Shown: positions 1,497-62,956, counted from the first letter of the stretch. The stretch is DNA of 64,000 bases from a virus (IMGVR_UViG_3300028648_000132); one strand, 5' to 3'. The notes: generated from the letters alone by a model not told the origin. Program-made: numbers and translations.

Positions 1497-4013
1497 TTAT
1501 GCGATGCGGCGGCCGTCGAATGTGGCTATGCCGGATAGCGCTGTGATGCTTCGTGAGACAACGGTTTCCGAGCCGGTTGAGCCGTTGGACCGTATGTCGT
1601 AGTCGACCGCGATGAATCCTGGCTGCACGACATCTCCCGCCACCAGCGGGATTTCGAAGGCGCAACCCGACGGGATAGCGCCGGTGATGCGGGTGCCGTT
1701 CTTGTACACCACCCAGTAGGGCACGGATGTGCCCTTGGCGGTGACCGATCGGTAGGTGGTGTTGATGCGGTAGAGGCCGGTGGTGGTGATTTCGATGCGG
1801 GCTGTGCCCAGGTCGTCGAGGGTGACGTCGGTGGTGTAGTCGTTGAATGTGAAGAAACCGGACGGGAACGCACCGGAAGAATAGGGGCCGTAGGTGACGT
1901 CGGCGGTGCTATCTCGTCTGATGCTCCACGAATTTGACATCGAGAATCCTGCTCCCGCAGAGGTGTAATCGGACATCGCGAACGCGGCGACCCGGTAGGA
2001 GTCGTAGGTGAAAAACGGGCTCGCCCGCTGCACGCTGAACATCGAATACCGGTATGCCGCACCGATGCTGATGGTGTTGCCCGCGTCGGTGGCGGAGAGG
2101 ACCTGTCGGCCGTTGACGCGCACGAAGTAGTTGGTGCCCGCGCAGCGGATCTCGATGCGCGCGCCCTGCTTGACCGCCGAGAGCCCCGTCTGGAGCGTTA
2201 GGGGTGCGCTGAACGACCAGCTGGTACCCGAGCGGGTGAACTTGCCGATGCGGATCTCGCCCTCTTTGGCCAGGCAGTAGGCGCCCTGTGTGCGGCCCGA
2301 GTCGCATCGGATATAGACACCGGAGTAGTAGTTGCCATTTTGGGTGTCGCCCAACACAAATGACGCTGACTGGCCATCGGTGGCGTAGGTGTAGTTCGGG
2401 CTGGCGAAGAAGTACCCGTCGGAGTTGCCGTTCTTGACGCCCGCGTACCCCGAGTCCCCGCGAATAGTCACGTCTCCGGGGTTGGGTCCGGTGGTCCAGT
2501 CTGTCGAGTTCAGTGCGGCGCCGTCGGCGCCGGAGAAGGTGAAGCTGTAGCTGTTGCCGCCGCCGGTGTTCTGCTCGGTTTCCTGCTCCTGCAACGTGGT
2601 TTGCGCCGCGATTGCGCTCTTGAGTGCGTCGCGCGAGAGGCCGAGCAGCGATAGCAGTGATTCCTTGGCCTGGTTGATCTGCTCGCCGATGGTTCCCGTT
2701 GTGCTCGTGCCTGTTCCGTCGGCGCCAGTTTTGACGCCGGTCAGCATGTCGCCGAGGTTGCTGACCAGATCGTTGACCCGGCCCATGTCGAAATTGCCGA
2801 CCACGTCGCCCGCGTTCAGTGTCCCGCCAGCGGTGAGCTTCTGAGTCTTGTTGTTGCTCAGCCCGAACCAGTCCTTGACGGCCTGGATGGTCGAGTTGAT
2901 GGGTGTGACCACAAGCCCGCCGAAGATGTCCCGTATCTGGTTCAGCTGGGCGTTGAGGTCGGGGAGATCGGTGACCTTGGTCTGCGGGAGTAGCGGGATG
3001 TTGCCTAGGCCGAGCAAGCCCAGTATCTCTGCTGCGTCGATCTTGCCGTCAGCAGTGATTGCGGCGAGACGGTTTTGGATGTCGCCGATTTCGGCGTTGA
3101 CCTGACCGGCGACGGTGTCGAAGAACTCCTTGAAGCGGTCCAGTCCGACCTTGTGCGCCAGCTCCTCCAGGGCATTGCCAATGTCGGTGCCGAACTGCTC
3201 CAGCTGGGTGACAAGATCCTGCACGTAGTCCTGCGGGAGCTTCCCGGTCTTCCAGGTATCGGCGTCGTCGAACCACACGGCGCCTGCGGTGACGTCGCCG
3301 GTCACTAGGAGCGTGGTGCGGACTTCGTCGACGCCAGTGTCGGGCACGGTGTAGGTGCCGTGCAGCTCCACCCATCCGCTGCTGTCGGCCGCCGTCGGCT
3401 GGTGCTGGGCAACGACTGTCGACGAAACAGGGTTACCCGCCAGGTACGAGGTGACGATCAGCCGGATGGGGTTGGTGCCAGCACCAGCGGTAAGGCCCTG
3501 CCAGCGGGTGAATACCTCCAGTTCCAGGTGCTGCTTCTTGGCCACCGGTATGGCGTTGGAGTGCAGGTATTTTGCGACCCCTGCCATGACGGCCTTGACC
3601 GATCCCAATGGGCTGGTGCGGCCGATGGTGCCGTCCCACAACCAGTCCGGGTTGTCGACGACCGCGGCGTCGGTGTCGAAGCCGCCGTTGAGTAGCAGGT
3701 TCGGGAACCACTCGCCGATCTGTGACAGGGGGATGAGCGGCAGCAGTCCGGGCTTGATCCACGACAGGACGTTCGCAATGCCCTTCTTCAGCTCGTCCAG
3801 CCACTCGATGATCTCGGGGATGGGGTTGGTGGCTATACCCAGCAGGGAGTCGATGAGCCGTTGGAGTTCCTTCTGGATCATCACCGGCAGCTGCTTGAGG
3901 ACATCGCCGAGGTTGTTGATGGTCTTCTTGAGCGCCGGGTCCTGGGCGAGTTGGTTGGTCGGGTCGTATTCCGTCTTGAAGTTCTGTGGGACCAGATCGA
4001 CTGACCGAGGCAT
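1497..4013 (-). CDS. minor tail protein (838 aa)
   Basis: Start chosen at MPRSVDLVPQNFK (ATG at 4013), which overlaps the TAA of the upstream gene (TAATG). The upstream 68 codons of the track ORF are Arg/His-rich junk. Large beta-rich C-terminus typical of actinophage minor tail proteins. Confidence 0.7.
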   Translation of the reverse strand: MPRSVDLVPQNFKTEYDPTNQLAQDPALKKTINNLGDVLKQLPVMIQKELQRLIDSLLGIATNPIPEIIEWLDELKKGIANVLSWIKPGLLPLIPLSQIGEWFPNLLLNGGFDTDAAVVDNPDWLWDGTIGRTSPLGSVKAVMAGVAKYLHSNAIPVAKKQHLELEVFTRWQGLTAGAGTNPIRLIVTSYLAGNPVSSTVVAQHQPTAADSSGWVELHGTYTVPDTGVDEVRTTLLVTGDVTAGAVWFDDADTWKTGKLPQDYVQDLVTQLEQFGTDIGNALEELAHKVGLDRFKEFFDTVAGQVNAEIGDIQNRLAAITADGKIDAAEILGLLGLGNIPLLPQTKVTDLPDLNAQLNQIRDIFGGLVVTPINSTIQAVKDWFGLSNNKTQKLTAGGTLNAGDVVGNFDMGRVNDLVSNLGDMLTGVKTGADGTGTSTTGTIGEQINQAKESLLSLLGLSRDALKSAIAAQTTLQEQETEQNTGGGNSYSFTFSGADGAALNSTDWTTGPNPGDVTIRGDSGYAGVKNGNSDGYFFASPNYTYATDGQSASFVLGDTQNGNYYSGVYIRCDSGRTQGAYCLAKEGEIRIGKFTRSGTSWSFSAPLTLQTGLSAVKQGARIEIRCAGTNYFVRVNGRQVLSATDAGNTISIGAAYRYSMFSVQRASPFFTYDSYRVAAFAMSDYTSAGAGFSMSNSWSIRRDSTADVTYGPYSSGAFPSGFFTFNDYTTDVTLDDLGTARIEITTTGLYRINTTYRSVTAKGTSVPYWVVYKNGTRITGAIPSGCAFEIPLVAGDVVQPGFIAVDYDIRSNGSTGSETVVSRSITALSGIATFDGRRIA

Positions 4014-11800: not shown

Positions 11801-13577
11801 TGTCGGCCACAAGTTTCAGCGGCGGCTCCAGCGCCTGCATGGCGAAACCTAGGGCGCGCCAACCTGCTACAGCGGTTGCACCGGCGCCCATTGCGATGGC
11901 CTTGGATGCGGCGGCTAGCGAGGGCGTCAGGTCCTTGGCGGCGCTGGAGATGTCGCGCCAGCCCTGCCGGATCTGGTCGACCGCGGTACCGCTGCCGCCA
12001 CCGCCGGTCCTGAGGTCACGCATCGCGTCGGCGGCCTTGTCCAGCCAGCCAGTCATCCCCCTACCGGCTGACTGCAAAGTCGGCGAAACCAGGTCGTACA
12101 GAGCCAGCTTCGCGCTCTCGGCGGTGTTCTTGAGTCCCTCGACAACCCCCGGTAGGCCCTGCATCTGCGCGGCGGCCATCTCGCTGGCACCACCGGCGCG
12201 GCCGACAGCCCGGAACATCTCGTCGAACATCTGGACGCCGCCACCGGCTGCGACCATGGCCGCGCGCATCGCGTCAGAGCCAAACAAGATGTTGGTGTCG
12301 GCCTGGAACTGCTCTTCGGTCATCCTCTTTGACGCTGCGGCAACCTGTTCCAGCATGGAGCGGTAGCCGACGAACTTGCCGGTGGTGTCGTACAGGGTCA
12401 ACCCCAGGCTTTCGATAGCGCCCTGTGCGGGGTTGCCCTGGTCAGTGATGGCCTGGAGGGAGGTCTTGATGAGGGTGCCTGCATCGGAGCCGCGGATACC
12501 GGCGTTGGCCAGAAGTCCGAGGGCAGTAATCGTGTCCTGGGCGGTCAGCCCGAAGCCGTGAGCGACGGCACCGGCCTGCTGAAGACCGAGGGCGAAGTCG
12601 CCGATGTCGCCGGTGGATGCGTTGGCGACGTTGGCCAACATGTCAGCCATATTGGCCGCCTGGTTGGCGTCCATTCCGAAGGCGTGAAGGGCATTGGCCT
12701 GAATCTTGGCTGCCTCTGCTGCGGATACCTGTGCGGCGGTTGCTAATTGCAGGGTGCCGCGAGCCGCGGACATGGACTGGTCGACGTCGAAGCCGCCCTT
12801 GGCGAGTTCGGTCATGGCCTGGGCTGCGTCGGAGGCCGACACACCGGCGAGCTGAGTGTCAGCGCCCAGCTCGCGGGCGCGCCGAGAAACGGCCGCCATC
12901 TGCTCAGGTAGTGCGCGGGTGACGCCCTGCATGGTGTTGAGCGCCGAATCGAACGAAAGGCCCGTGTCGACAACGCTTTTGACGGCAGCGATGAATCCGC
13001 CGCCTGCGGCCAGTGCGGCGCCGGTGTTGAGGGCGCGCTGGAAGCCCTGCGCGAAGCGGGCGCCGGAGTCCGACCCGTACGCCTCGGCCCGCATGATCAG
13101 CCCCGCACCGAACGGCATCTTGACCTGACTGGACGCCTGCGACTGCGCCTTCTGAGCACGCTCCAAGTCCCGGGTGACGCGGGTCAGGTTCTGTGTCGAC
13201 ACCTCCTGTGCGCGCCGCGCCCGCGCCACACCCTCCTCAGCAGTAGCCCGCTGAGTGGCTGTGGCCCTGCCCTTCTCGTTGAGTTCGTTGAGTCGTGTCT
13301 GGGCGACGGTGAGGCGTCCCGTGGCGTCCGCGTCTGCCTTCTTCGCGGTCGCCAGTGCCTTCTCGGCACGTTCGACCTGGCGGAGTGCGTCGACCGCCGA
13401 CTTGCCGCTGGCGGCAAGGTTGCGGGCCATGTCGGCACCCATGGTGCGGGTGGCACGGCCGAAGCGGCGTTCCGCGTCGCGGCCGATGCGTTCGACGCCC
13501 GCGGCAAGGCCCGACGCCTCGGGCATCAGGGGCACCCATACTTGCGCCAGTTCAACGGCGGCGACTGCTGGACTCAA
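8871..13577 (-). CDS. tail tape measure protein (1568 aa)
   Basis: Very long protein with an Ala/Gln-rich coiled-coil N-terminus and internal Gly-rich segments. TTG start at 13577 with an AAAGGAG RBS, overlapping the stop of the chaperone T frame. Contains an embedded Cys-His peptidase-like motif (GPSGTDCSGA...GGGHMAV). Confidence 0.9.
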   Translation of the reverse strand: MSPAVAAVELAQVWVPLMPEASGLAAGVERIGRDAERRFGRATRTMGADMARNLAASGKSAVDALRQVERAEKALATAKKADADATGRLTVAQTRLNELNEKGRATATQRATAEEGVARARRAQEVSTQNLTRVTRDLERAQKAQSQASSQVKMPFGAGLIMRAEAYGSDSGARFAQGFQRALNTGAALAAGGGFIAAVKSVVDTGLSFDSALNTMQGVTRALPEQMAAVSRRARELGADTQLAGVSASDAAQAMTELAKGGFDVDQSMSAARGTLQLATAAQVSAAEAAKIQANALHAFGMDANQAANMADMLANVANASTGDIGDFALGLQQAGAVAHGFGLTAQDTITALGLLANAGIRGSDAGTLIKTSLQAITDQGNPAQGAIESLGLTLYDTTGKFVGYRSMLEQVAAASKRMTEEQFQADTNILFGSDAMRAAMVAAGGGVQMFDEMFRAVGRAGGASEMAAAQMQGLPGVVEGLKNTAESAKLALYDLVSPTLQSAGRGMTGWLDKAADAMRDLRTGGGGSGTAVDQIRQGWRDISSAAKDLTPSLAAASKAIAMGAGATAVAGWRALGFAMQALEPPLKLVADILGNNQWLTTGLVAVLTALYLKSKLAGPALQVAAKATQAWGTAFAGWRTPATQAQQAMENTTRTAGESTRAQRGWATQMKDSYNQAADRSLFFSRTAGTAGAAMTGMKLAGSGVLSMLGGPWGVAAAGVGLAMGMIADAHQKAAQKAQEQKQAEEELRATLDQDSGRVTDETRRKAAERFGKEDPYKTTDIGRAKGLGIDPNMLVDAATGTGNAQAYDIIKKLALDKGVREGLDKVSITGSGGTKLDWNVIQQQYQAMGVSSDELYNALIKEGNGWDTVNGKIAKYRAANPGDQNLVGLQQIIDAMPDANESLITLTQNVNEQRRETDKGAQSLRDMAQAQYGLWKATDVGVARFKDLGAAIVSVPNNKSIDLKVDPAKYDETKKKLEELGYTVTQLPGGIVKVTAATDEAQKRFNDLVYKVNNTTATLPIDLKLANSLGAILPPGLQGVFNAATLAGQVPGRASGGHVDGRGVISGQGTGTSDSILARVMGGAAGQFIKVSNKESINTAQSTRDNMPLINAMNRGWVPSANFLRIMTGIPGYAGGGPISIEDAANDMAGAPYVRGGHGPSGTDCSGAASVLVNAAVGQPPYGERMATANAGDWLAARGAVMGRGPAGTLRVGWKNGGPGGGHMAVTLPDGRNAESGGKVGKFTVGAGAAGADDPQFTNQAYIPVNAMYPDGWPSGAAGGGYSMYGSGGGGGGAGGYGSGGGGGGASPAQRRQLRDAEQKVQDKQFDVEQAQRKLDELQSKKNVKPSEQAAAEERLTRAQREHKDALDDLSTKQEQVNDADTRGRGGQNGQQPGSGPDGKSFAKDMMSGAMEMFGLDGSIFSNPMDWGIFKLFTGGANAIGGMLKNAFGGPQQQQQNPMGTQAMRNNRHGLGGAPGPGDGGLGDFNFGDGGMGVVGDALQAALPQVGDFLPNSQNPGNNNYTTNQNSNNNSATGAAFYGPVTINDPGGLVKPPDRMNTRMTGLPKP

Positions 13578-24680: not shown

Positions 24681-25433
24681 TTACCACTGCTCTGAGGGCA
24701 TACCGATGTCGATGTGGGCGTCGTCGGTGCCGCGTTTGAGGTTGCAGTCGCGGTGGGAGGGCCGGAGGTTGTTGACGTCCATGGCCAGCTCGGGGCGTTC
24801 CTTGACTGGTGCGGCGTGGTCGGCGTTGAAGACATCGGGGTGGTAGGGGTCGGTGATGGTGTAGTCGATGGGGCGGTGGCAGATCCAGCAGGGTGCGCCG
24901 GTGGTGCCGTCGTCGTTGGTGTGGTGGGCGCAGGCGGTGCGGAAGTCGGCGACGAGCTTGCGGTAGGCGCGGGAGCGTGGGCGTCCGTCTGCGTCCAGGC
25001 CGGGTACGGCGGCGGGGTCCACGGGTGTGGTGGGTGCTTCGTCGTGGGTCTCGTACCAGTGGCGTGCTGCCTGCTGGATGTTGTGGGGCCGCTGCTGCTG
25101 GGCGCGGGCGAGCACAACGTCCTTGCCGGGGTTGATGGTTACGACCTCTGCGCCCAGCGCCCGGTACTTGGTGAGCAGGGCCTCGCTGGGTGTGGAGTGG
25201 ATGACGTACACGTCGGTGGTGGCGATCAGCAGTACCGCGGTGTCTATGGCTGCCTGCCGGGCTGCCTTCGTTACGGCCTTCACGTGCTCGGGGTGGCTGT
25301 GGGGGTCACCGCTGGGCGGGGTGAGGACGTTGGCGATGGCGTCGTAGTCGATGGTGATGTCGCCGGGCTGGGCGTTGGCCTGCACCCACGTTGACTTGCC
25401 TGCGGCGGGTGGACCGGTCACCACGTACAGCAC
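24681..25433 (-). CDS. P-loop kinase-like NTPase fused to an HNH endonuclease domain
   Basis: Walker A GPPAAGKST at the N-terminus. C-terminal HNH motifs CWICHRPIDYT...ADHAAPV...HRDCNLKRG. Confidence 0.7.
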   Translation of the reverse strand: MLYVVTGPPAAGKSTWVQANAQPGDITIDYDAIANVLTPPSGDPHSHPEHVKAVTKAARQAAIDTAVLLIATTDVYVIHSTPSEALLTKYRALGAEVVTINPGKDVVLARAQQQRPHNIQQAARHWYETHDEAPTTPVDPAAVPGLDADGRPRSRAYRKLVADFRTACAHHTNDDGTTGAPCWICHRPIDYTITDPYHPDVFNADHAAPVKERPELAMDVNNLRPSHRDCNLKRGTDDAHIDIGMPSEQW

Positions 25434-26267: not shown

Positions 26268-26704
26268 CAGAACAACCGATCATCGGCGCGCGGCGCGTGA
26301 TAGATACGGGCGGGCGGCCCGTACAGCAGCTCGCGCGGTACCGGTACGTCATCGAACACGTAGGTGTCCACGCGCAGGCGGGGCGAGCACGTGGAGCCAA
26401 TCGAGCGGAAGTGGACACGGCCGCCGGAGCGGTGCCGGACGGACGGATCACCATTCCGTCGAGACACCCGGTCGAGTACGTCCACCCCAGGCACAAGGTG
26501 CTCATCCAGCAGACGGCGGAAGGTGTCGGTGGCCACGGTCCAATCGAACGCCTCATACAGGACGGTGCGACCGCGACGAATCTCACCGGCAACGAGGTCG
26601 AGCAGGACGTGCGTCTTGCCGTGCATGCGGTCACCGCTGACCGTGACCACAGTGACCTTCGGGCCAGCAACGGCATCCTGGTGGACCTGCTCCGCAGTGG
26701 TCAC
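26264..26704 (-). CDS. small P-loop NTPase
   Basis: Walker A-like GDRMHGKT and Walker B-like TYVFDDV. Confidence 0.45.
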   Translation of the reverse strand: MTTAEQVHQDAVAGPKVTVVTVSGDRMHGKTHVLLDLVAGEIRRGRTVLYEAFDWTVATDTFRRLLDEHLVPGVDVLDRVSRRNGDPSVRHRSGGRVHFRSIGSTCSPRLRVDTYVFDDVPVPRELLYGPPARIYHAPRADDRLFW

Positions 26705-26982
26705 GCGTGGCGGTCCTGGATGACGGTCTGGTGGGCGTTGGCGATCGGCTCCCGCGAGACCTCACGGGCGATGGCTGCGTTGCCCCACATCAGGACTTCC
26801 TCCAGCTTGGTCAACGCGAGGGACTTCTCGCGGCCCGGCGGGAGGATGGTGTCTAGGTCGTGGGCCAGTTCCCGGCACTTGCCGCGGATGGTCTCGTGGC
26901 TGGTGACCTGCTCAGGGTCGGGTCGGTGGTAGTTGAACCGGTGGTCGATGTCTGCGTGGCTGGTGGGGGTGCTGTGGAACAT
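26701..26982 (-). CDS. hypothetical protein
   Basis: Start at MFHSTPTSH with an AAGGAGA RBS; an alternative start is 27018. The upstream ~225 codons of the track ORF are Arg/Pro/Ser junk. Confidence 0.45.
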   Translation of the reverse strand: MFHSTPTSHADIDHRFNYHRPDPEQVTSHETIRGKCRELAHDLDTILPPGREKSLALTKLEEVLMWGNAAIAREVSREPIANAHQTVIQDRHA

Positions 26983-27077
26983 GGCTGGGTCTCCTTGGAG
27001 CCATAGGTTGCAGGTCATGGTCAGACCTGCCTCGTTGATCACTGCTCGCAGCAGCGGGTCGTGGAGGGCGGGTTGGG

Positions 27078-27449
27078 TCAGCACAGGTAGCACTTCTTCT
27101 TGGTGTGGTCGTGCTGGCGTCGGTGGCAGCCGGGGCATGTGCCGCCGAGCTGCTGGCCGCAGTGCCCGCACACCTCGGGGGCGCGCGGTGCCGGTGCGGC
27201 AGGGGTGGGCAGTGTGAGGAGCAGGGTGTAGAAGGTCAGCGGCTGGGACGCCGGATATGCCATGCCTGCGGCGGTGGCCACGACGTCGGGGGTGAGGAGG
27301 TCGGGGTCGGTGGTGATCACCACGGGCTTGCAGCGGCGGCCCTTGCGGGACTGCCCCGGTGTGATGATCTGCCAGCCGGTCAGGTCCAGTAGGTCGGCCA
27401 GCCGCTCGCCGTCCTCGCGGCTGCGGGCGACTACGACACCGGCGCGCAT
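27078..27449 (-). CDS. zinc-ribbon protein
   Basis: ATG at 27449 overlaps the upstream stop (ATGA). C-terminal CGHCG...CPGC motif. Confidence 0.45.
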   Translation of the reverse strand: MRAGVVVARSREDGERLADLLDLTGWQIITPGQSRKGRRCKPVVITTDPDLLTPDVVATAAGMAYPASQPLTFYTLLLTLPTPAAPAPRAPEVCGHCGQQLGGTCPGCHRRQHDHTKKKCYLC

Positions 27450-27931
27450 CAGACGGGCGCCGGGTGGTTCTGGAACCAGCCCTCGTACTGCTGCGGCGTG
27501 AGGAACGGATACCGCTGCACCGTGGTGAGGTTGACCGTCCCACCACCGGTGGTGGGGGCGACGATGGCGAAGTTCCGCCATGACCGGTCACCGCGGTTGA
27601 ACACGATGTTGGAGAAGCTGATGTCGATGTACAGCGGCTGATCCCACGCCAGGAGCGGGGTGTTGGCGATGAGCTTGACGTTGACCGTGCCATCCAGCTG
27701 CTTCAACCGGCCTTCGTCGAGGCGGGCCGTGAAGGTGTCGAGCGCGAAGTCGGTGGGGCGTGGGTTGTACTCGGCGGCGCGGAACGCCCAGCCGGACGGC
27801 ACCCGGTACCGGAACAGGATGGTGCCGGTGACGGGCCGAATATCCGGCTCGTTGTCCGGGTCGGTCTGGCGGTCGGTGACACCTGCCCAGGTGTCGTAGC
27901 TGACCGTGAACGACTCTGGCAGAGCGCTCAC
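27449..27931 (-). CDS. hypothetical protein
   Basis: 160-aa ORF without an Arg-rich artefact, in an overlapping operon arrangement. Confidence 0.5.
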   Translation of the reverse strand: MSALPESFTVSYDTWAGVTDRQTDPDNEPDIRPVTGTILFRYRVPSGWAFRAAEYNPRPTDFALDTFTARLDEGRLKQLDGTVNVKLIANTPLLAWDQPLYIDISFSNIVFNRGDRSWRNFAIVAPTTGGGTVNLTTVQRYPFLTPQQYEGWFQNHPAPV

Positions 27932-33463: not shown

Positions 33464-33793
33464 CTAGTCTTCTCCGGCGGCGTTGGGGGCCTTGATGTTT
33501 GGCCAGTAGATGACGGTGCGGCGGCCCATGCTGTCGGTGTAGGTGGGCAGCGACCAAATACGGTCGACGAGATCTGCGACGTCATCGTCGGCGCCTGCCA
33601 GGACGTAGGCCAGCTCTGCGGTGACCGCGGGGGTGAGGTTGGAGTCGTCCAGGACGACGGCCAGGCATTCCTTGCCGTACATGCCTCGCCCGCTGTAGTC
33701 CGTTCGGACAGTGGGTAATTCGCCGTCGCCAGCGTAGTTGTTGAGGCTGTCCTCGAAGGAGGTCAGCTGCTCGGCGGTCAGGGTCTCGTTCAT
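33464..33793 (-). CDS. hypothetical protein
   Basis: 109 aa. Its ATG lies 11 nt downstream of an AT-rich GTATAG-N4-CTATAC palindrome. Confidence 0.5.
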   Translation of the reverse strand: MNETLTAEQLTSFEDSLNNYAGDGELPTVRTDYSGRGMYGKECLAVVLDDSNLTPAVTAELAYVLAGADDDVADLVDRIWSLPTYTDSMGRRTVIYWPNIKAPNAAGED

Positions 33794-33803
33794 GAGATAA
33801 ACT

Positions 33804-33819
33804 GTATAGTTAGCTATAC
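33804..33819. promoter_or_regulatory. 16-bp palindrome GTATAGTTAGCTATAC (operator and/or -10 element) immediately 5' of the gene 33464-33793
   Basis: AT-rich dyad in a 68% GC genome. It shares the core AGCTATAC with three other sites (36836, 37257, 37305). Confidence 0.4.
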
Positions 33820-33832
33820 GTTATGTCGAGCG

Positions 33833-33946
33833 TTAGTCGGCGCGGATAACCGCGATGATCACGGCCGTCATGCAGAGCACCGCGACGACAAGGACGACCG
33901 CGGCGGGCCAGCCGTTCAGGCTCTGGAGTGGGGTGTTGAAATCCAT
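33833..33946 (-). CDS. small membrane peptide (37 aa)
   Basis: MDFNTPLQSLNGWPAAVVLVVAVLCMTAVIIAVIRAD, a single TM helix. The upstream part of the track ORF is artefact. Confidence 0.35.
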   Translation of the reverse strand: MDFNTPLQSLNGWPAAVVLVVAVLCMTAVIIAVIRAD

Positions 33947-33963
33947 TGCGGCGTCTGCCTTCC

Positions 33964-34194
33964 TTACCTGGTGACGTGTTGGGCGGTTGGGGTGCGGCCG
34001 TCGAGAATTTTCTGGATCAGGCCCGGGCTGCACGTCACCGCTGCGGCCAGCGTGGCGTAGGTCCACTTCTCTCGTTCGGTGGTCCACAGCTCGCGAACTA
34101 GCCGGTCCCGTTCGTACCGGTGTTGTTCGCCGACGCGGGAGGCATCACGCTGCAACCGGTGATGCTCCCGCGCCTGCTGTGCCCTTGGGTCCAC
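33964..34194 (-). CDS. small putative DNA-binding protein
   Basis: 76 aa with an HTH-like stretch (KWTYATLAAAVTCSPGLIQKIL), immediately downstream of the Ro60-like gene. Confidence 0.4.
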   Translation of the reverse strand: MDPRAQQAREHHRLQRDASRVGEQHRYERDRLVRELWTTEREKWTYATLAAAVTCSPGLIQKILDGRTPTAQHVTR

Positions 34195-34200
34195 GCGTTC

Positions 34201-35916
34201 CTACAGTCCGGCCGAGAAGTCCGAGATCAACTGCGGGACAGCCGAGTCGAAACCAGACACGTCGAGCTGGCCGGGGTCGGCGGGGTCGGCGATGGTGAAG
34301 CGGGTTGCCGTCATGCCGACAACGATCAGGCGGGCGTTGATGCCCATCTTGTTGCGGTAGTCGCGGAGCGCCTGGTGCGGGTGGACGTCGCCGAACCAGG
34401 TCTCGTTGTCGGTGATGACCACGAACGTGTCGAACTCGCGCTTGGACTGCTGCGCCCACAGCATCGGGAGTGCGCAGTCTGTGGCGCCGAAGCTGAGTCC
34501 GGCGGTGTACCGGCACACGTCGTCGAGGCGACGGCGCGGTGTGATGTCCAGCGGGGTGAGTAGGTGCTGGGACCGGTAGCCGTAGCCCGAGCGCGCGGCC
34601 TGTCGGCCGTCGGTGAAGCCGACGACTTCGTGGTCCGGCTCGACGTTGGCGGTGACGAGCGCGAGCGCGGCTGCGGCCTCGCGGCATGTCAGCGGCATAC
34701 CCGAGATCGCGGCGCCCATGGAGCCGGACACGTCCAGCGCCAGCAGGGTGCGCATGCCCGACGGCTCCACCGCGCCGTAGGCGTTGTAGAACGCAGCGTC
34801 CAGGGCATCCACGACCTTGCGTTCCGGCGTCCAGGTGGAGTCGCCGCGCGCCGAACGCCCGGACGCATAGGTGCGCTGTGCGATCAGGACGTTGACCGGG
34901 TGGACGCGGCCCTTTCGTAGACGGTCGGCGTCCTGGAGCTGAGCAACGACACGATCCAGATATTCACCATGCAGGACCCCATGCCGGGTCAGCCGCGGCA
35001 GTTGGCGCATCAAAGCCGTCTGCGGCAGACCATGCTCAATCAGCGCTTCCCACACAGCCGTGAAGTTGAGCGCGACGTCTGGCAACGCTTCCCAGGGAAG
35101 GCCGTTGCCACGTCGAATGATGCTCACCCATTCCTTGGGTTGGGTGGCGCGCTGGGCGTCCTCGAAGTCCTCGATGATCGCCAGGGGGTGGTCGACCGCC
35201 AGATCGACATTCGGCAGCTTGGGCCGGGAGGCGTTGCGCTCCCCTGCCTTCAACTGCTCGGCGGTGAGGGGCTGAACCTTGCCGATGTAGTCGTTCAGGC
35301 CCTTGCCGACTGCCCAGTTGAAGGCGAGGCGGCGGGCCGGGTCCGCCGTGGCGGGGCCGGACAGGCGTAGGAGGTCCCGGTGCATCCAGCCTTCGCGCTG
35401 CCGGTACTTGACCAGCTGGTAGGCGAGACGGTCGACGGGCTTGTCGAGGTACCAGCCGCCGACGGCGCGCTGCATGGCGCGGCCCCACCCGCGGAACTGC
35501 TCCATGTACTTGACGAACGTGTACAGCTGGGTGCCGGTGCGGGCGACCGTGGGCAGGGCTGCCGCGGCGGCGCGGCGGCCGTCGACGTCCTCTGCTGCTG
35601 CGGCGATAGCGAGGGCGAACAGGGCCGGGTTCTGTCGGGGCGCGCGTCCGGCCACCGATACCTCGACGATGTGCTGGACGAGGTGGACCGGGTCGGCCGC
35701 TGCTGCGCGGAACACCACCGCCGCGGTGTCCTTAGTCAGGTCGGCGGCGTTGGTGTAGTAGGTGCCGCCGTCGGTGCCGAGGGTGAGGAAGCGGTGCAGC
35801 AGCGTCTCGTCGTCGATGGTGAAGGTGTAGCCACCGGCGGAGTTCTTCACCTGCCGGGGGTCCGCCTGCTGCGACTGCGGCGTCTTACGGGTTCCGATAG
35901 TGGTGAGAACGTCCAC
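34201..35916 (-). CDS. rsr: Ro60/Rsr-like ribonucleoprotein (TROVE domain plus C-terminal vWA domain)
   Basis: 571 aa. C-terminal vWA domain with the MIDAS motif LALDVSGSMGAA, and a long helical TROVE-like N-terminal region. GTG start with an AAGGAGA RBS. Immediately adjacent to tRNA-like ncRNA modules, the arrangement described for rsr/Y RNA loci. Confidence 0.8.
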   Translation of the reverse strand: MDVLTTIGTRKTPQSQQADPRQVKNSAGGYTFTIDDETLLHRFLTLGTDGGTYYTNAADLTKDTAAVVFRAAAADPVHLVQHIVEVSVAGRAPRQNPALFALAIAAAAEDVDGRRAAAAALPTVARTGTQLYTFVKYMEQFRGWGRAMQRAVGGWYLDKPVDRLAYQLVKYRQREGWMHRDLLRLSGPATADPARRLAFNWAVGKGLNDYIGKVQPLTAEQLKAGERNASRPKLPNVDLAVDHPLAIIEDFEDAQRATQPKEWVSIIRRGNGLPWEALPDVALNFTAVWEALIEHGLPQTALMRQLPRLTRHGVLHGEYLDRVVAQLQDADRLRKGRVHPVNVLIAQRTYASGRSARGDSTWTPERKVVDALDAAFYNAYGAVEPSGMRTLLALDVSGSMGAAISGMPLTCREAAAALALVTANVEPDHEVVGFTDGRQAARSGYGYRSQHLLTPLDITPRRRLDDVCRYTAGLSFGATDCALPMLWAQQSKREFDTFVVITDNETWFGDVHPHQALRDYRNKMGINARLIVVGMTATRFTIADPADPGQLDVSGFDSAVPQLISDFSAGL

Positions 35917-35947
35917 CGTGCATCTCCTTGGTAGGGGTGCGGGCGGC

Positions 35948-36030
35948 GCGAACGTGTGTGGGGCTGCCGGGGTTTGTCATCCATGTGAGGGAGGGGTTAA
36001 CCGACTGCGATCCTGCTCGTGCCACCCGTG
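35948..36030 (-). ncRNA. degenerate Y-RNA-like stem (module 0), without a tRNA-like domain
   Basis: Carries the conserved 5'-strand motif variant AGGATCGCAGTCGGTTAAC and a 3'-strand CACACACGUUCG that pair over a short internal loop. Lies between rsr and module 1. Confidence 0.3.
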
Positions 36031-36048
36031 AGGGGCTATTGGGCGGGT

Positions 36049-36168
36049 GATGTGAACGTGTGTGTGCTGACCGGGATTTCGCTTTTACACCCGCACTAGG
36101 TGCGGGCGACAGGGATTGAACCTGCATTACCAATTGAGTGATAACCGACCGAGCGTCCTGTTCACATC
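36049..36168 (-). ncRNA. Y-RNA-like (YrlA-like) ncRNA module 1 with a tRNA-like domain
   Basis: 9-bp closing helix GAUGUGAAC / GUUCACAUC. Conserved motif GUGAACAGGACGCUCGGUCGGUUAUC, a D-loop-like CAAUUGGUAAUG, T-arm GCAGG-UUCAAUC-CCUGU, and a closed acceptor-like hairpin CCCGCAC-CUA-GUGCGGG. Confidence 0.5.
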
Positions 36169-36217
36169 GGGTTGTCTGTCGTGCGCGTAGGTGGTGTGGG
36201 CGTGTGGGGTGCCGACC

Positions 36218-36332
36218 GGCGTATGTGGACAATTGCCTCTACCAATTGGGCTACACCCCGCGAGCGAGGTGGTGGGGCTCGAACCCACACCTGACTGTTT
36301 TGGTAACCGACCTGCGTCCTGTCCACACCGCC
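36218..36332 (-). ncRNA. Y-RNA-like ncRNA module 2 (permuted tRNA-like)
   Basis: Conserved motif, then T-arm GUGGG-UUCGAGC-CCCAC, an acceptor-like hairpin CACCUCG/CGGGGUG closed by a short loop, then UA plus a D-arm-like GCCCAAUUGGUAGAGGC. Closing helix GGCGGUGUGGAC / GUCCACAUACGCC. Confidence 0.5.
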
Positions 36333-36363
36333 TGCGCGCGTGCGTCTGCTGGTGTCTTGAGGT

Positions 36364-36497
36364 GGTGTGAGCGTGTGGGTGTCGTCCGGGTTTTAGCGCT
36401 CTAGGCCGCTGAGCTACAACCACTTTCGTGGCTGGCGGGATTCGAACCCGCGTCTCTCTCATGAAAGGAGATAACCGAACGAAGTCCTGTTCACACC
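36364..36497 (-). ncRNA. Y-RNA-like ncRNA module 3 (permuted tRNA-like; best preserved)
   Basis: Conserved motif, an anticodon-like hairpin UCUCC-UUUCAUG-AGAGA, T-arm GCGGG-UUCGAAU-CCCGC, acceptor 3' strand CAGCCAC, a GAAA loop, acceptor 5' strand GUGGUUG, then UA and a canonical D-arm GCUC-AGCGGCCUA-GAGC. Closing helix GGUGUGAAC / GCUCACACC. Confidence 0.55.
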
Positions 36498-36510
36498 GTG
36501 CTACGTATGG

Positions 36511-36665
36511 AGTTGTGTTGGGTGATGGGGCGAACGTGTGTGTGCTGACCGGGTTTAAGCGCTCTACCAACTGAGCTACAGCCGGGGGTTGGCTGGCGGG
36601 ACTCGAACCCGCGACCTCTCCATTAGCAAGTGGTAACCGATCTGCGTCCTGCTCGCACCATCTGG
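36511..36665 (-). ncRNA. Y-RNA-like ncRNA module 4 (permuted tRNA-like)
   Basis: Conserved motif, T-arm GCGGG-UUCGAGU-CCCGC, an acceptor-like hairpin CAGCC-AACCCCC-GGCUG, then UA and a canonical D-arm GCUC-AGUUGGUA-GAGC. Closing helix GAUGGUGCGAGC / GUUCGCCCCAUC. Confidence 0.5.
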
Positions 36666-36687
36666 TGTTTATGTTGTGGTTTGGGGG

Positions 36688-36808
36688 CGACGTGAACGTG
36701 GTTGGCGCTGGACGGGTTTGGCTCCATTTCCCCGCTTGGCTCGGGGCGTTCTAACTTGAACTACGGGGCGTGGCCCCGAGATAACCGACCTGCATCCTGT
36801 TCACGTCG
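36688..36808 (-). ncRNA. Y-RNA-like ncRNA module 5 (divergent internal hairpins)
   Basis: Perfect 10-bp closing helix CGACGUGAAC / GUUCACGUCG. Carries the conserved motif, but internally has GC hairpins (CUCGGGGC...GCCCCGAG) instead of a clear T/D pair. Confidence 0.4.
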
Positions 36809-36835
36809 TCCGTTGTTTTGTTGTCTGAAAACGAA

Positions 36836-36853
36836 GCTATACCGCGGTATAGC
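36836..36853. promoter_or_regulatory. perfect 18-bp palindrome GCTATACCGCGGTATAGC between the secreted-protein gene and the ncRNA array
   Basis: A hairpin/operator candidate containing the AGCTATAC core. It is followed on the minus strand by a U-rich stretch (UAUAGCUUCGUUUUCAG), so it could act as a terminator for the upstream gene and/or as a promoter/operator for the array. Confidence 0.4.
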
Positions 36854-36907
36854 GGTGCGGCAACAGGATTCCGGGGTGGCTGTATAGCCGCTCGGTAGCC
36901 GCGACCA

Positions 36908-37246
36908 TCACTTTCCGGCGCCAGCGCCTCCGCTCGCCGAGGACCCACCGCTACCTGCGGACCCGCTACCAGCGCTGTTGCCTCCACTTTCACCCGCGCC
37001 TGGACTTGCCGGACCTGTAGGTGGATGGTGTTGGCCCTCAGGGCATTCCGGGTCCTCTGGGGGTTTGTATCCGCCGCCACCTGCTGGGGTGAAGGGTGCG
37101 GGTCGGGCACCCAGGCATGTCTTGGCGTCTGTCGCGGCGTACAGGCAACGCTCTGGGAATGCGGAGGCCGTTGTAGTTGGGAGTGCCGTGAGGGCGGCGA
37201 TGGCGGTAGCAATGAAGGCAATGCGTTTTGCACTAAGGCTTTTCAT
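36908..37246 (-). CDS. small secreted protein (signal peptide, Gly/Ser/Pro-rich)
   Basis: Start at MKSLSAKRIAFIATAIAALTALPTTTASA, a predicted signal peptide. 112 aa. The upstream 111 codons of the track ORF are artefact. Sits next to a divergent promoter region. Confidence 0.55.
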   Translation of the reverse strand: MKSLSAKRIAFIATAIAALTALPTTTASAFPERCLYAATDAKTCLGARPAPFTPAGGGGYKPPEDPECPEGQHHPPTGPASPGAGESGGNSAGSGSAGSGGSSASGGAGAGK

Positions 37247-37256
37247 GACTCGAAAC

Positions 37257-37320
37257 GTATATAGAGCTATACACATAAGCAAGGCTGTTACGGCTTGTTC
37301 TTTCGTATAGTGAGCTATAC
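37257..37320. promoter_or_regulatory. divergent promoter/operator region with two GTATA(T/G)-N4-CTATAC palindromes
   Basis: GTATATAGAGCTATAC at 37257-37272 and GTATAGTGAGCTATAC at 37305-37320, with the shared 10-mer GAGCTATACA. Both lie between the minus-strand secreted-protein gene and the plus-strand island. TATAGT/TATAGC are -10-like. Confidence 0.4.
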
Positions 37321-37330
37321 ATTCTGAGTC

Positions 37331-37582
37331 ATGGCAAGAGTGACACTCACAGCGAAAGCGCGGATGCGCGCCAACAAGCGCCGCGTCATGTCGGCACTCC
37401 GCAACGCCGGTATGCCGCTCCTGGTCGACAACCGCGACGGCATCTGGCGCCTCTATTTCATCGGCACCGACGACACCGGTGTCGAGCTGGAGCTGATCCT
37501 GGTCCCACACGCCACCCAGGACTGGACCTGGGTATGTATCCACGCCATGCCCACCAAGTACCGGAAAGGAGGGGCACAATGA
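37331..37582 (+). CDS. putative BrnT-like (DUF4258-like) toxin
   Basis: 83 aa. N-terminal LTAKARMRANKRRVMSALRNAG resembles the HAxeRMxeRgIs opening of DUF4258/BrnT toxins. First gene of the plus-strand island; its stop overlaps the next ATG (ATGA). Confidence 0.4.
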   Translation: MARVTLTAKARMRANKRRVMSALRNAGMPLLVDNRDGIWRLYFIGTDDTGVELELILVPHATQDWTWVCIHAMPTKYRKGGAQ

Positions 37583-37773
37583 CCCTCATGAGCAGTCACA
37601 GCGAAGCCGACCTCAAGCGCCTCACCTTCGGCGATGACCTGGTCGTCGACGACATCGACCTCGACAAGGACGAGTTCCTTGTCGGCGACGGCGTCCGGCT
37701 GACCAACGACGCGGCAGACAAGATGGCCGATGAGACTTTGGCCGAGGTCCGACGCCAGAACATCCGACCGTGA
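37579..37773 (+). CDS. putative BrnA-like (DUF4415-like) antitoxin
   Basis: 64 aa from MTLMSSHSEADLKRLTFGDDLVVDDIDLDKDEF. The DDIDLDKDEF segment resembles BrnA N-terminal motifs. Translationally coupled to the upstream gene. Confidence 0.35.
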   Translation: MTLMSSHSEADLKRLTFGDDLVVDDIDLDKDEFLVGDGVRLTNDAADKMADETLAEVRRQNIRP

Positions 37774-38105
37774 CCGGCCCTGACGTCGCTGCACCGCGGG
37801 ACATCGTTGCCGACAGCCTCGGTGGTGGATGGCCACAGGCAGATGCTGCACTGGACGCGCTCGACCGCGCCGGATATGCCGTAGTAGCCAAGGTGTGGGT
37901 CGCGCAACTCGAACTGATCGAGCACCGCGGCGGTTGGATCGGCGTCTACGTCACCCCAGAAGGCGCCGCCGCGGCCCTGGTCAAGTGGGCGCGCGGTGTT
38001 GGCGTCCCGATCGAGCACTACGACCCTGCGACCGGGTCAGAAATACTGGACGAACACCCCGAGATAGAAACGTACGGCGTCTCATATGTGGAGGTGGAGC
38101 GATGA
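37770..38105 (+). CDS. hypothetical protein
   Basis: 111-aa ORF in the plus-strand island. Confidence 0.45.
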   Translation: MTGPDVAAPRDIVADSLGGGWPQADAALDALDRAGYAVVAKVWVAQLELIEHRGGWIGVYVTPEGAAAALVKWARGVGVPIEHYDPATGSEILDEHPEIETYGVSYVEVER

Positions 38106-38410
38106 AGTGGACCTGCGAGCGGCCCGGCCGCTGGACCGGCACCGACGGCGCCAACACCGCCACCGCCATACGCATGCGCGAAGGCATGATCGGCTGCAAC
38201 GAATGGATGTGGGTCACTAAGGTCAACGGCGAGCACATCACCAATGCGGATGGGCTCCGCGAGGCGAAGCGGGCTGTGTCCGAGCGACTTAGCGGCACAA
38301 ACCTACATGCCGCGCGACGAGCCGCTGCCGAGCAAGGCGCGGCAATCGGTGAACGTCAACGACTAGGGCTGGCGCCAACCCGTGCGGAGATCACCCGTGC
38401 AGAATCGTGA
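38102..38410 (+). CDS. hypothetical protein
   Basis: ATG at 38102 overlaps the previous stop (ATGA). The upstream 91 codons of the track ORF are Arg-rich artefact. Confidence 0.45.
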   Translation: MKWTCERPGRWTGTDGANTATAIRMREGMIGCNEWMWVTKVNGEHITNADGLREAKRAVSERLSGTNLHAARRAAAEQGAAIGERQRLGLAPTRAEITRAES

Positions 38411-38600
38411 ACTCATAGAGCAGGCCGTGAGCGAATACGGGTGGGCAACTGAGAAACCCACCATCTACGCGCCGATGTTGTACAAGTACACCAAGGCAGG
38501 CCGCCATCCGGTGCTGGTTATCTACGACATCCACGGCGATCTGGACGGCGAGATGATTGTGACGGCCGACGAAATCGTGGCTGAACTGTCCAGCAACTAA
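38397..38600 (+). CDS. hypothetical protein
   Basis: GTG start at 38397 (VQNRELIEQAVSEYGW...). Its end converges on the stop of the minus-strand early operon at 38597. Confidence 0.4.
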   Translation: MQNRELIEQAVSEYGWATEKPTIYAPMLYKYTKAGRHPVLVIYDIHGDLDGEMIVTADEIVAELSSN

Positions 38601-62342: not shown

Positions 62343-62645
62343 ATGACCGTTGCATACGAAACCGGGACTATCCCCCCAATGCGTCTGCGATACCGCCTAC
62401 AGATCGCACGGGAAGAAGCCCAACTAGATCAAAGGCAACTGGCCGACATGATGGGCGTCGGCCGGTCGGTAATTGGCAATTGCGAAAAGGGTCGGACCGT
62501 CCCTAAAAAGATCGTCCTCAACGCCTGGGCATTGGCCTGTGGAGTGCCAGTAAGTTGGCTAGCCGAGGGCGAAGGTGAGCAGCCGCCGGAGGGCGACGGG
62601 CCGTCTGTGGTGCGCCCGAAGGGATTCGAACCCCTAACCTTCTGA
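62343..62645 (+). CDS. immunity repressor (XRE-family HTH), prophage form with its C-terminus encoded across attR inside host tRNA-Arg
   Basis: 100 aa with the HTH LDQRQLADMMGVGRSVIGNCEKGRTV. Transcribed divergently from the cro-like gene. The last ~12 codons (VVRPKGFEPLTF*) are read from the tRNA-Arg gene. Confidence 0.6.
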   Translation: MTVAYETGTIPPMRLRYRLQIAREEAQLDQRQLADMMGVGRSVIGNCEKGRTVPKKIVLNAWALACGVPVSWLAEGEGEQPPEGDGPSVVRPKGFEPLTF

Positions 62646-62683
62646 TCCGTAGTCAGATGCTCTATCCGTTGAGCTACGGGCGC
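62608..62683 (-). tRNA. tRNA-Arg (anticodon ACG), CCA encoded; integration site (attR overlaps its 3' end)
   Basis: Cloverleaf: GCGCCCG-UA-GCUC-AACGGAUA-GAGC-A-UCUGA-CUACGGA-UCAGA-AGGUU-AGGGG-UUCGAAU-CCCUU-CGGGCGC-A-CCA. Confidence 0.9.
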
Positions 62684-62730
62684 TTACTATTCAATTGTTG
62701 CAGGTCAACAGGTTTGGCCTGCAGACCGAC

Positions 62731-62819
62731 GCGGAGGCGAGAGGATTTGAACCTCCGGTCCCCCGTAAAGGGGACAACTCATTAGCAGTGAGTCCCATTC
62801 GGCCGCTCTGGCACGCCTC
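62731..62819 (-). tRNA. tRNA-Ser (anticodon GCU), type II with a long variable arm
   Basis: GGAGGCG acceptor, D-arm GCCAGAGCGGCCGAAUGGGAC, anticodon loop CUGCUAA, and a long variable arm before the T-arm GGAGG-UUCAAAU-CCUCU. Coordinates are approximate to +/-1 nt. Confidence 0.85.
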
Positions 62820-62956
62820 CTGAACTTCCTGAGCGGGACTCCGGACCCATAAAAATGGATCCCGAACCGCCGAGGGCACAGAGTACAGGGCCGCGCGCCC
62901 CAAAGGCAAAGCCGTTGGTCGTCATCGGGCCCCACGTGCCCCGATAGTCTGGTCAC

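Follow-up and report, generated by a model that had tools for sequence, protein, structure and literature searches.

The 64,000-nt viral sequence IMGVR_UViG_3300028648_000132, the whole of which is referred to here as the window, contains on its minus strand an rsr gene and, next to it, an array of six structured modules, designated M1 to M6 in the direction of rsr (Table 1). The rsr product is a Ro60/Rsr protein. Residues 23-347 match the Pfam TROVE domain (PF05731) at 1.2e-46, which corresponds to the N-terminal HEAT-repeat ring, and residues 389-567 match the C-terminal Ro60-type vWA domain (vWA_Ro60, PF25045) at 5.6e-64. The translation contains LALDVSGSM, with the MIDAS motif DxSxS (for metal ion-dependent adhesion site) present as DVSGS and invariant across an 18-sequence alignment (D395, S397, G398, and S399). 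Comparison with the PDB yields Deinococcus radiodurans Rsr (2NVO, 2.5e-103), Xenopus Ro60 (1YVP, 1e-98), and human RO60 (9NEN, 1.9e-98), and the closest cellular relatives are mycobacterial Rsr proteins, with 65-68% identity (65% for Mycobacterium smegmatis Rsr, P0049). The original prediction for this region had discerned in the 571-aa gene a TROVE-like body and a vWA/MIDAS motif, DVSGSM, and the profile search that it proposed recovers both domains.

Because rsr reads right to left in the window, the array lies upstream (5′) of the gene and not directly downstream of it, as had been thought; its location on the same strand as rsr was correctly anticipated. All six modules fall 29-891 nt 5′ of the rsr start and are separated from each other by spacers of 25-34 nt. 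Between the end of M6 and the GTG start codon there are 28 nt, which include an AAGGAG Shine-Dalgarno sequence.

Table 1. Features of the array-rsr locus (positions in the window; R1 is the covariance model described in the text).
Feature	Position	Strand	Description	Basis
Palindrome	36835..36853	minus	GCTATAC-CGCG-GTATAGC(T), i.e., GCTATACCGCGGTATAGC(T); candidate -10/operator of the array-rsr unit	28 nt upstream of M1
M1	36689-36807	minus	119 nt; three hairpins, none tRNA-like	R1 40.6 bits
M2	36527-36659	minus	133 nt; YrlA type	R1 134.2 bits; Rfam YrlA 43 bits
M3	36364-36497	minus	134 nt; YrlA type	R1 130.9 bits; Rfam YrlA 28.9 bits, partial match
M4	36193-36329	minus	137 nt; YrlA type	R1 103.5 bits; Rfam YrlA 28.5 bits, sub-threshold
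M5	36049-36168	minus	120 nt; YrlB-like layout	R1 79.9 bits
M6	35945-36023	minus	79 nt; minimal, short insert without tRNA likeness	R1 35.3 bits, E 5e-07
rsr	34201..35916	minus	Ro60/Rsr protein, 571 aa, GTG start	ORF, Pfam and PDB matches
Small ORF	33964..34194	minus	76 aa, directly after rsr; equivalent to prophiGD43A-5 gene 53	weak helix-turn-helix match

Anatomy of the array

The six modules have in common a frame that consists of a closing helix of 8-9 bp followed by a conserved inner helix with a loop. On the 5′ side, a 9-nt closing strand (GRYGYGARC) is followed by AGGAC, GC, A, GGUCGG, and UUAYC and then by a variable insert; on the 3′ side, the insert gives way to CCGGUC, A, GC, and ACACACAC and then to the complementary closing strand, which in M1 completes a perfect 9-bp helix (GACGUGAAC/GUUCACGUC). 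The strongly conserved part of the frame is the inner helix with its internal loop (AGGAC...GGUCGGUUA / CCGGUC...CACACG).

The inserts differ to the extent that at least four architectures can be distinguished. In M2, M3, and M4, a short, variable stem is followed by the T arm GCGGGUUCGARUCCCGC; next comes an acceptor-like hairpin, closed and comprising 5 bp in M2 and 7 bp in M3 and M4, and a UA linker then leads to the D arm, GCUCAG..GGUAGAGC. This order is that of the tRNA-like, circularly permuted domain reported for YrlA (PMC4201824; bioRxiv 10.1101/312249). Specifically, M3 combines the T arm GCGGGUUCGAAUCCCGC with a hairpin capped by a GAAA loop and the D arm UAGCUCAGCGGCCUAGAGC, and M4 combines the T arm GUGGGUUCGAGCCCCAC with the hairpin CACCUCG/CGGGGUG and the D arm UAGCCCAAUUGGUAGAGGC. 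In M5, the frame encloses the T arm GCAGGUUCAAUCCCUGU, preceded by a 7-bp hairpin and followed by one of 9 bp, without a D arm, and M1 and M6 have neither arm. Thus, the suggestion that T- and D-arm elements occur in every module holds for M2-M4 and, with respect to the T arm, for M5, but fails for the D arm of M5 and for M1 and M6 altogether. Since the full tRNA-like domain is missing from M1, M5, and M6, these three are best considered other Y RNA types (YrlB-like or unclassified) rather than YrlA.

The spacers contain a CA-rich motif, ACAACTYCATA, that is located 8-14 nt before many modules, both in the window (36498-36526 and 36660-36688) and in three of the related loci discussed below (L090, L093, and L099), and also precedes M. 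smegmatis YrlB (locus L163, 3834-3850). This motif might serve as a signal for processing; it does not fit the -10 consensus, nor does it consistently fit the RNase E motif of mycobacteria.

Covariance model and conservation of pairing

For the identification of modules, we used a covariance model (R1) derived from a MAFFT alignment of ten YrlA-type modules: M. smegmatis YrlA, the three of the window, and six that come from related prophages. The model replaced regular expressions because the strict one (5′ CAGGA..CGGTTA) detected arrays only in M. abscessus prophages and missed M. smegmatis, which has CCGGA, whereas a looser one was too noisy for counting. Across the 64-kb window, R1 produces six matches, all on the minus strand within 35945-36807, with scores of 134, 131, 104, 80, 41, and 35 bits (E from 7e-32 to 5e-07); no other match exceeds 12 bits. 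When 33500-38500 was scanned without filters, the same six matches were recovered and no seventh, with at most 10 bits on the opposite strand. The refined coordinates agree closely with the repeated modules at 36049-36808 and the sixth stem at 35948-36030 that had been reported initially, and the scores are far beyond chance.

The pairing of the 5′ and 3′ ends of the modules is maintained by compensatory changes. In the unfitted MAFFT alignment of the ten modules, both sides have changed in 17 of the 32 pairs, and 94.7% of cells are paired, compared to 83.2% after shuffling (with 94.7% attained in 0 of 500 shuffles) and 32-47% when the partners are slid. When 69 modules from 15 loci are aligned to R1, compensatory changes are found in 29 of the 32 pairs, with 95.6% paired cells versus 72.5% for shuffled and 35-44% for slid partners. 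These changes are unevenly distributed: all 8 closing-helix pairs, as opposed to 5 of the 8 inner pairs, show compensation, and the inner UCGG/CCGG block, which includes U.G and G.U pairs, is almost invariant. The conserved G.U and U.G pairs, together with the difference in score between the strands (40.6 bits on the minus strand versus 10.3 on the plus strand for M1), fix the minus strand as the RNA strand. A reading of the array as DNA-level repeats or iterons was considered and is ruled out by the same strand-specific pairs and the compensatory changes.

The long closing helices of the original prediction are thus supported by covariation in the 69 homologues, although the role assigned to them, that of the Ro-binding stem, has to be reconsidered. 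The inner helix with its loop is constrained in sequence and the terminal helix in structure only; therefore, the inner part is the likelier contact with Rsr, in preference to the freely covarying terminal helix.

Relationship to known Y RNAs

The closest characterized counterpart of the locus is that of M. smegmatis, where YrlA and YrlB bind Rsr as demonstrated by immunoprecipitation, and YrlA is cleaved by RNase P and acquires CCA (Chen et al., 2014, RNA 20:1715; PMC4201824). As in the window, the genes for the Y RNAs immediately precede rsr (5′) and share its strand. In M. smegmatis (locus L163), the frame of the window modules is found again (GCCGGACGUCGAUCGGUUA...CACACGCCCACAUC), and the published YrlA and YrlB probes fall inside the two R1 matches of this locus; the frames are identical in the pattern ...GGAC..(N)UCGGUUA... 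/ ...CCGGU..CACACGCCCAC.... M2, the closest counterpart of M. smegmatis YrlA among the six modules, has in common with it the CCACUUCUAAUGGA stem (CCACUUNUAAUGGA), the T arm, the D arm, and the 7-bp acceptor hairpin type, and M5 has the layout of YrlB, that is, a T arm and a hairpin. These comparisons show, at the sequence level, that the six modules are homologous to the Rsr-bound YrlA and YrlB of M. smegmatis, and the recognition of an rsr/Y RNA (YrlA) arrangement in the original prediction was therefore justified. The differences concern number and setting: M. smegmatis has two chromosomal RNAs and the window six, in a prophage, and the window adds the tRNA-like paralogues M3 and M4, the three-hairpin M1, and the minimal M6.

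Among phages, 22 members of cluster C of the mycobacteriophages (the ET08/Bxz1 group) have been listed with a Ro-like protein and a YrlA (Chen et al., 2014; PMC4201824). Here, too, a phage rsr has a YrlA-type RNA immediately upstream, and a part of M2 aligns with ET08 in BLAST. However, the cluster C phages, unlike the temperate 76-kb MabK prophage, are 155-kb lytic myoviruses; they have about 30 tRNAs and two modules, compared to six modules and no annotated true tRNA genes in the prophage. In Thermus phage phiLo, Ro60 likewise has Y RNA-like genes upstream, and Yrl1 and Yrl2 of this phage have been shown experimentally to bind the phage Ro60 and to form a complex with host polynucleotide phosphorylase (PNPase) (NAR 2025; PMC12135203). 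In that case, there are two RNAs defined by a CGAA motif in a bulge, which are not described as tRNA-like, and the host belongs to a distant phylum.

Outside phages, the YrlA system of the RtcB/RtcA operon combines an end-paired Rsr-binding stem with a tRNA-like effector domain, as in the window; this domain consists of a T arm, a closed acceptor stem, a D arm, and a variable loop, and the corresponding Rfam model aligns M2 end to end. It differs in that the RNAs are located 3′ of rsr and the operon, which includes the repair enzymes RtcB and RtcA, is under RtcR/sigma-54 control, whereas the window modules score below the gathering threshold and have a diverged GNCGAA motif. D. radiodurans also encodes several small RNAs (Yrn1 and Yrn2) upstream of rsr, and in its Rsr-Y RNA-PNPase machine (RYPER), the ring of Rsr is tethered to PNPase by a Y RNA, whose effector domain contacts the KH/S1 domains of PNPase. 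The Yrn RNAs represent a separate lineage with a metazoan-like binding helix, and no homology to Yrn1 was seen in the window modules, no dedicated test having been made.

Array size and individual conservation of the modules

To place the array in a broader context, about 160 rsr loci were fetched and scanned with R1; for 81 chromosomal actinobacterial loci among them, the matches 5′ of rsr were counted by hand. In nearly all of the approximately 160 loci, the modules immediately precede rsr, on its 5′ side and in the same orientation. The chromosomal loci most often have two modules and never more than four, and in M. smegmatis the count equals exactly the two known RNAs. Larger numbers are found among IMG/VR contigs: six or seven modules in the M. 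abscessus prophage group, five in a group whose Rsr is 76% identical to that of the window, and five or six in four other lineages (default filters). Filter-free scans of two of the latter further reveal contiguous arrays of about ten modules (L139, 2638-3970) and nine modules (L104, 2872-3977) in two unrelated contigs with 54-56% identical Rsr proteins. These two arrays exceed any that we found in the literature examined. Hence, the characterization of the locus as unusually elaborate is apt with respect to all 81 chromosomal loci but has to be qualified in view of the related prophages with seven modules and the two contigs with 9-10. Among deposited phage genomes, only prophiGD43A-5 and prophiT37-1 have the whole array; elsewhere, R1 detects two modules in ET08 (a YrlA at 85 bits and a short second one) and one in Microbacterium phage FuzzBuster.

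The individual modules are more similar to their counterparts in other prophages than to each other. In the lineage with the 76%-identical Rsr (L093), the counterpart of M2 (L093_2) is 87% identical, compared to at most 74% for other modules of the same array; for M5, the respective values are 91% (L093_4) and at most 67%, and for M6, 77% (L093_5) and at most 52%. Such a pattern shows that, as judged by sequence identity, the paralogues are old and individually conserved and are not recent duplicates. It also disposes of the notion that the sixth stem is degenerate, because this short rsr-proximal module is retained in every related prophage. Gain or loss of whole modules nevertheless occurs, as three loci (L087, L088, and L090) have an extra YrlA-type unit between M2 and M3.

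In a separate set of chromosomal loci from Promicromonospora and its relatives (L019, L024, L025, L028, L049, and L051), an extra Y RNA-like pair is present on the strand opposite rsr, 1.5-2.7 kb upstream of the gene (about 1.0-2.6 kb into the locus, minus strand).

Prophage context, candidate promoters, and neighboring genes

The location of the locus in a prophage, as initially proposed, is borne out by approximately 95% identity of the window to prophiGD43A-5, an M. abscessus prophage of cluster MabK that is integrated at a tRNA attB site (PMC8092301). The prophage ends at about 62645, where it overlaps the 3′ end of a host tRNA-Arg(ACG), and this end is the attL side, with a truncated immunity repressor (window ~62608-62820). 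Beyond it, the host flank continues with a tRNA-Ser(GCU), and this arrangement fits the attB-1 integration described for MabK phages.

In the prophiGD43A-5 record, rsr is gene 52, a "Ro-like RNA binding protein." The orthologue of M2 is labeled tRNA-Thr(tgt), the other five modules are unannotated, and none is labeled a Y RNA. The "tRNA-Thr" (L001, 8389-8467; MW584167, 26001-26079) corresponds to the 5′ two-thirds of a YrlA-type module, and the paper on the prophage counts it as the single prophage tRNA, with Ro and Y RNAs unmentioned (PMC8092301). Similarly, the "hypothetical protein" gp219 of ET08 (L164, 2260-2433) overlaps both ET08 Y RNA modules. Both entries are probable annotation errors.

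The array and rsr are embedded in a long co-directional block of small early genes. No TANNNT -10 element was found before the internal modules in the upstream sequences inspected, and there is no terminator between modules or between M6 and rsr; given also the short spacers, the array and rsr probably constitute a single transcript. The palindrome upstream of M1 is one of several related elements. The octamer GTATAGCT occurs four times in the window compared to 0.31 expected, always on the minus strand (33812-33819, 36835-36842, 37265-37272, and 37313-37320); three copies form part of 16-bp palindromes, GTATAG-N4-CTATAC, just before the starts of minus-strand genes, and the copy before M1 has its half-sites in reverse order relative to the other three. 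Furthermore, the sequence GGTATAG(C/T)T, followed 11 nt on by CAACAAAACA, is conserved in L093. The palindromes are likely to be a promoter/operator family of this prophage region. Several chromosomal and phage loci have a different palindrome, CTGTAC-N4-GTACAG(TT), about 14 nt before the first module (L007, ~3493-3512; L017, ~3565-3583; L100, ~3321-3340; and L102, ~3469-3488), which contains the -10-like TACAGT; in M. smegmatis, TAGCGT is found at an equal distance (L163, ~3680-3690). These last upstream sequences suggest that rsr-Y RNA operons share a conserved, possibly repressor-controlled, predicted promoter.

The small ORF that follows rsr matches Pfam HTH_31 at 7.9e-4, below the curated cutoff, and the transcript may extend to it because the next octamer is located at 33812. 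On the other side of the array, a 112-aa ORF (36908-37246, minus strand) has a signal-peptide-like N-terminus and a Gly/Ser/Pro-rich tail; it has no Pfam match and is unannotated in prophiGD43A-5. It is positioned between the array and a toxin-antitoxin pair (37331-37582 and 37534-37773, both plus) that corresponds to the BrnT-like toxin and antitoxin genes of prophiGD43A-5. Some 520 nt separate the array from this upstream pair, which is encoded in the opposite orientation and has been placed among the early lytic genes (PMC8092301). Neither ORF of this pair in the window matched Pfam at E<0.01. Since BrnT toxins are ribonucleases, a functional tie to the RNA locus is conceivable. The co-directional block further includes a protein with an Acb2/Tad1 hairpin domain (26701-27693, minus; 3.5e-21), the fold of anti-CBASS and anti-Thoeris sponges, and a protein combining an AAA_33 kinase with an HNH domain (24681-25433, minus), which corresponds to the "polynucleotide kinase" of prophiGD43A-5. 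Thus, genes for counter-defense and for the healing of RNA ends both neighbor the array-rsr locus. There is no rtcB or RNA ligase among the approximately 20 neighboring ORFs scanned or in the prophiGD43A-5 annotation over 1-45000, and rtcA was likewise not seen there. ARAGORN predicts a 99-nt tRNA-Ser(gga) in the structural-gene region (11909-12007, plus), which is probably a false positive because Rfam reports no tRNA there at the gathering threshold.

Proposed function and alternative explanations

We consider it highly probable that the locus is an rsr-Y RNA operon of a MabK M. abscessus prophage, in which six distinct Y RNA genes of the YrlA/YrlB family are followed by the gene for their Rsr partner. 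Under the model that we propose, the array and rsr would be transcribed leftward as a single precursor from a promoter/operator at about 36835-36853, probably alongside the early lytic genes, and the precursor would be cut into RNAs of about 80-140 nt, yielding six Y RNAs plus the rsr mRNA. With 7-bp acceptor-like stems such as that of M. smegmatis YrlA, M3 and M4 may also be cut by RNase P and receive CCA. Rsr would bind each RNA via the inner helix and loop (AGGAC-GC-A-GGUCGG-UUA / CCGGUC-A-GC-ACACAC), leaving the variable domain as an effector arm that could tether Rsr to host PNPase or to tRNA-recognizing enzymes or else gate access to the Rsr ring. The resulting particles might redirect the host degradation or repair of structured RNA during infection. 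The analogies for this mechanism come from D. radiodurans and Salmonella (PMC4201824) and from the Ro60-Yrl-PNPase complex of phage phiLo (PMC12135203).

Several observations weigh against this interpretation. No module reaches the gathering score of the Rfam YrlA family (RF02553), which is 69 bits: at relaxed thresholds, the Rfam search recommended in the original prediction does recover M2, M3, and M4, the best being M2 (43 bits, E 7e-08, full length), but none passes. The experimentally validated YrlA of M. smegmatis, at 45.1 bits, also falls below 69 bits, so the cutoff is not decisive and reflects the model rather than the RNAs. The published criteria for YrlA comprise location within 4 kb of rsr on the same strand and GNCGAAN0-1G in the 5′ strand (Chen et al., 2014), and this motif, the published Rsr site, is only partly kept. 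YrlA and YrlB of M. smegmatis carry GUCGAUCG, which departs from it once, whereas the window modules carry GCAGAUCG, GCAGGUCG, UUCGUUCG, CUCGGUCG, and GCAGUCGG, with 2-3 departures (GCAGAUCG or GCAGGUCG in M1, M2, M4, and M6; NUCGKUCG in M3 and M5); the invariant block in the lineage of the window is UCGGUUA, in place of the published motif. The folding of the modules, also suggested at the outset, gave a divided result: minimum free energy z-scores from single-sequence folding against shuffles are -3.0, -3.5, and -3.2 for M1, M3, and M5, respectively, but are non-significant for M2, M4, and M6. Because folding energies fail to separate these three from shuffles, we relied on covariation, for which the sequences, being paralogues and relatives, are not independent, the 69-module alignment being, in addition, fitted to the model. 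Moreover, according to published RNA-seq of the GD43A lysogen, the prophage is for the most part silent (PMC8092301), and the palindrome before M1 also receives a weak score as a terminator-like hairpin of the preceding ORF, which it may terminate instead of being a promoter/operator. Finally, an effector, be it PNPase or another protein, is inferred purely by analogy, and even in model bacteria no effector of YrlA-type RNAs has been established (bioRxiv 10.1101/312249).

How do other explanations fare? That the modules represent what is left of a tRNA cluster of the phage, or real tRNAs of an unconventional kind, and lie beside rsr by chance is most improbable and, indeed, already contradicted. 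It would account for the strong T-arm and D-arm sequences, for the tRNA-Thr of GenBank at the M2 orthologue, and for an Rfam tRNA match at 36427-36585, the only one in the array that passes the gathering score. The latter, however, is a chimera, with its D arm taken from M2, its T arm from M3, and a 100-nt insert between the two, and ARAGORN finds no tRNA in 35900-36900. Unlike a cloverleaf, the modules have the T arm ahead of the D arm, an acceptor stem capped by a loop, and no anticodon arm; furthermore, it is the non-tRNA frame that is most conserved and covaries, and the linkage to rsr extends across the approximately 160 loci. A cis-acting role, in which the modules chiefly make up the 5′ untranslated region of the rsr mRNA, with, for example, Rsr bound to M6 autoregulating translation or stability and without release of trans-acting RNAs, is considerably less far-fetched but still improbable. 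The proximity of M6 to the GTG, with the Shine-Dalgarno sequence between them, the conservation in most loci of a short module about as far from the start, and the lack of -10-like elements and terminators between modules all speak for it. Conversely, the equivalent upstream modules of M. smegmatis accumulate as discrete Rsr-bound RNAs (PMC4201824), and a leader would have no need of diversified, individually conserved inserts. Such regulation would, in any case, be compatible with the operon of Y RNAs rather than exclusive of it.

The remaining alternative, which we judge unlikely although it is the least so of the three, accepts the modules as Rsr-stabilized Y RNAs but casts them as tRNA mimics that sponge host factors recognizing the elbow or acceptor stem, instead of adaptors to an exonuclease. 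The potential targets include tRNA-targeting toxins, defense nucleases, nucleotidyltransferase toxins, RNase P, the CCA-adding enzyme, and modification enzymes. M2-M4 retain the elbow of T loop and D loop, the UA linker, and closed acceptor stems; the Acb2/Tad1-domain anti-defense protein and the polynucleotide-kinase-like gene belong to the same early block; and the literature has considered phage TROVE proteins and their tRNA-like partners as platforms for RNA repair in biological conflicts (PMC7824862). The D arms, which bear on the distinct cargo domains suggested alongside a quality-control/decoy module in the original prediction, also vary among the paralogues and, in sister arrays, resemble those of particular tRNAs (L093_1, host tRNA-Ser(GCU); L099_2, tRNA-Glu(UUC); L093_3, tRNA-Glu(CUC)), but the comparison was made against a small and arbitrary set of 159 tRNAs from the fetched loci and is generic for M2 and M3 of the window. 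The resemblance to individual tRNAs is thus suggestive for the sister arrays, and we do not treat the tRNA identity of each module as established. Moreover, the modules lack the anticodon loops and free CCA ends that most known tRNA-directed toxins attack, half of the modules are not tRNA-like, and nothing links the locus to any specific defense system.

A wider generalization can be put forward tentatively, with the expectation that it probably does not hold: arrays of Y RNAs before phage rsr genes might be a general feature of actinobacteriophages, each a diversified set of Rsr-bound adaptors or decoys patterned on different tRNAs. On this equally tentative footing, the D arms would be Ser- and Glu-like in sister arrays and Leu-, Lys-, or Val-like in the window. 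If so, one Rsr could be aimed at, or shielded from, several tRNA-recognizing host factors during infection. We found no description of such a phage-wide pattern in the literature examined.

Implications

The conservation of Ro60 and Y RNAs extends from bacteria to humans, and Ro60 is a major autoantigen in lupus and Sjögren's syndrome. Proteins of the Ro60/Rsr class bind Y RNA at the surface of the ring and misfolded RNA in its central cavity. The arrangement of an rsr gene with its partner RNAs is already known; what is unusual in the present case is the presence of six individually conserved paralogues that are not annotated as Y RNAs. Given that the Rfam YrlA threshold misses even a validated mycobacterial member, the Y RNAs of actinobacteria and of phages are systematically under-annotated. 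In line with this, the ORF over the ET08 Y RNAs is probably spurious, and the GenBank records of MabK prophages, in all probability, mislabel one module as a tRNA while omitting five. Six Y RNAs before a single rsr, in a temperate phage of a pathogen of clinical importance, make for a compact natural experiment on Y RNA effector domains.

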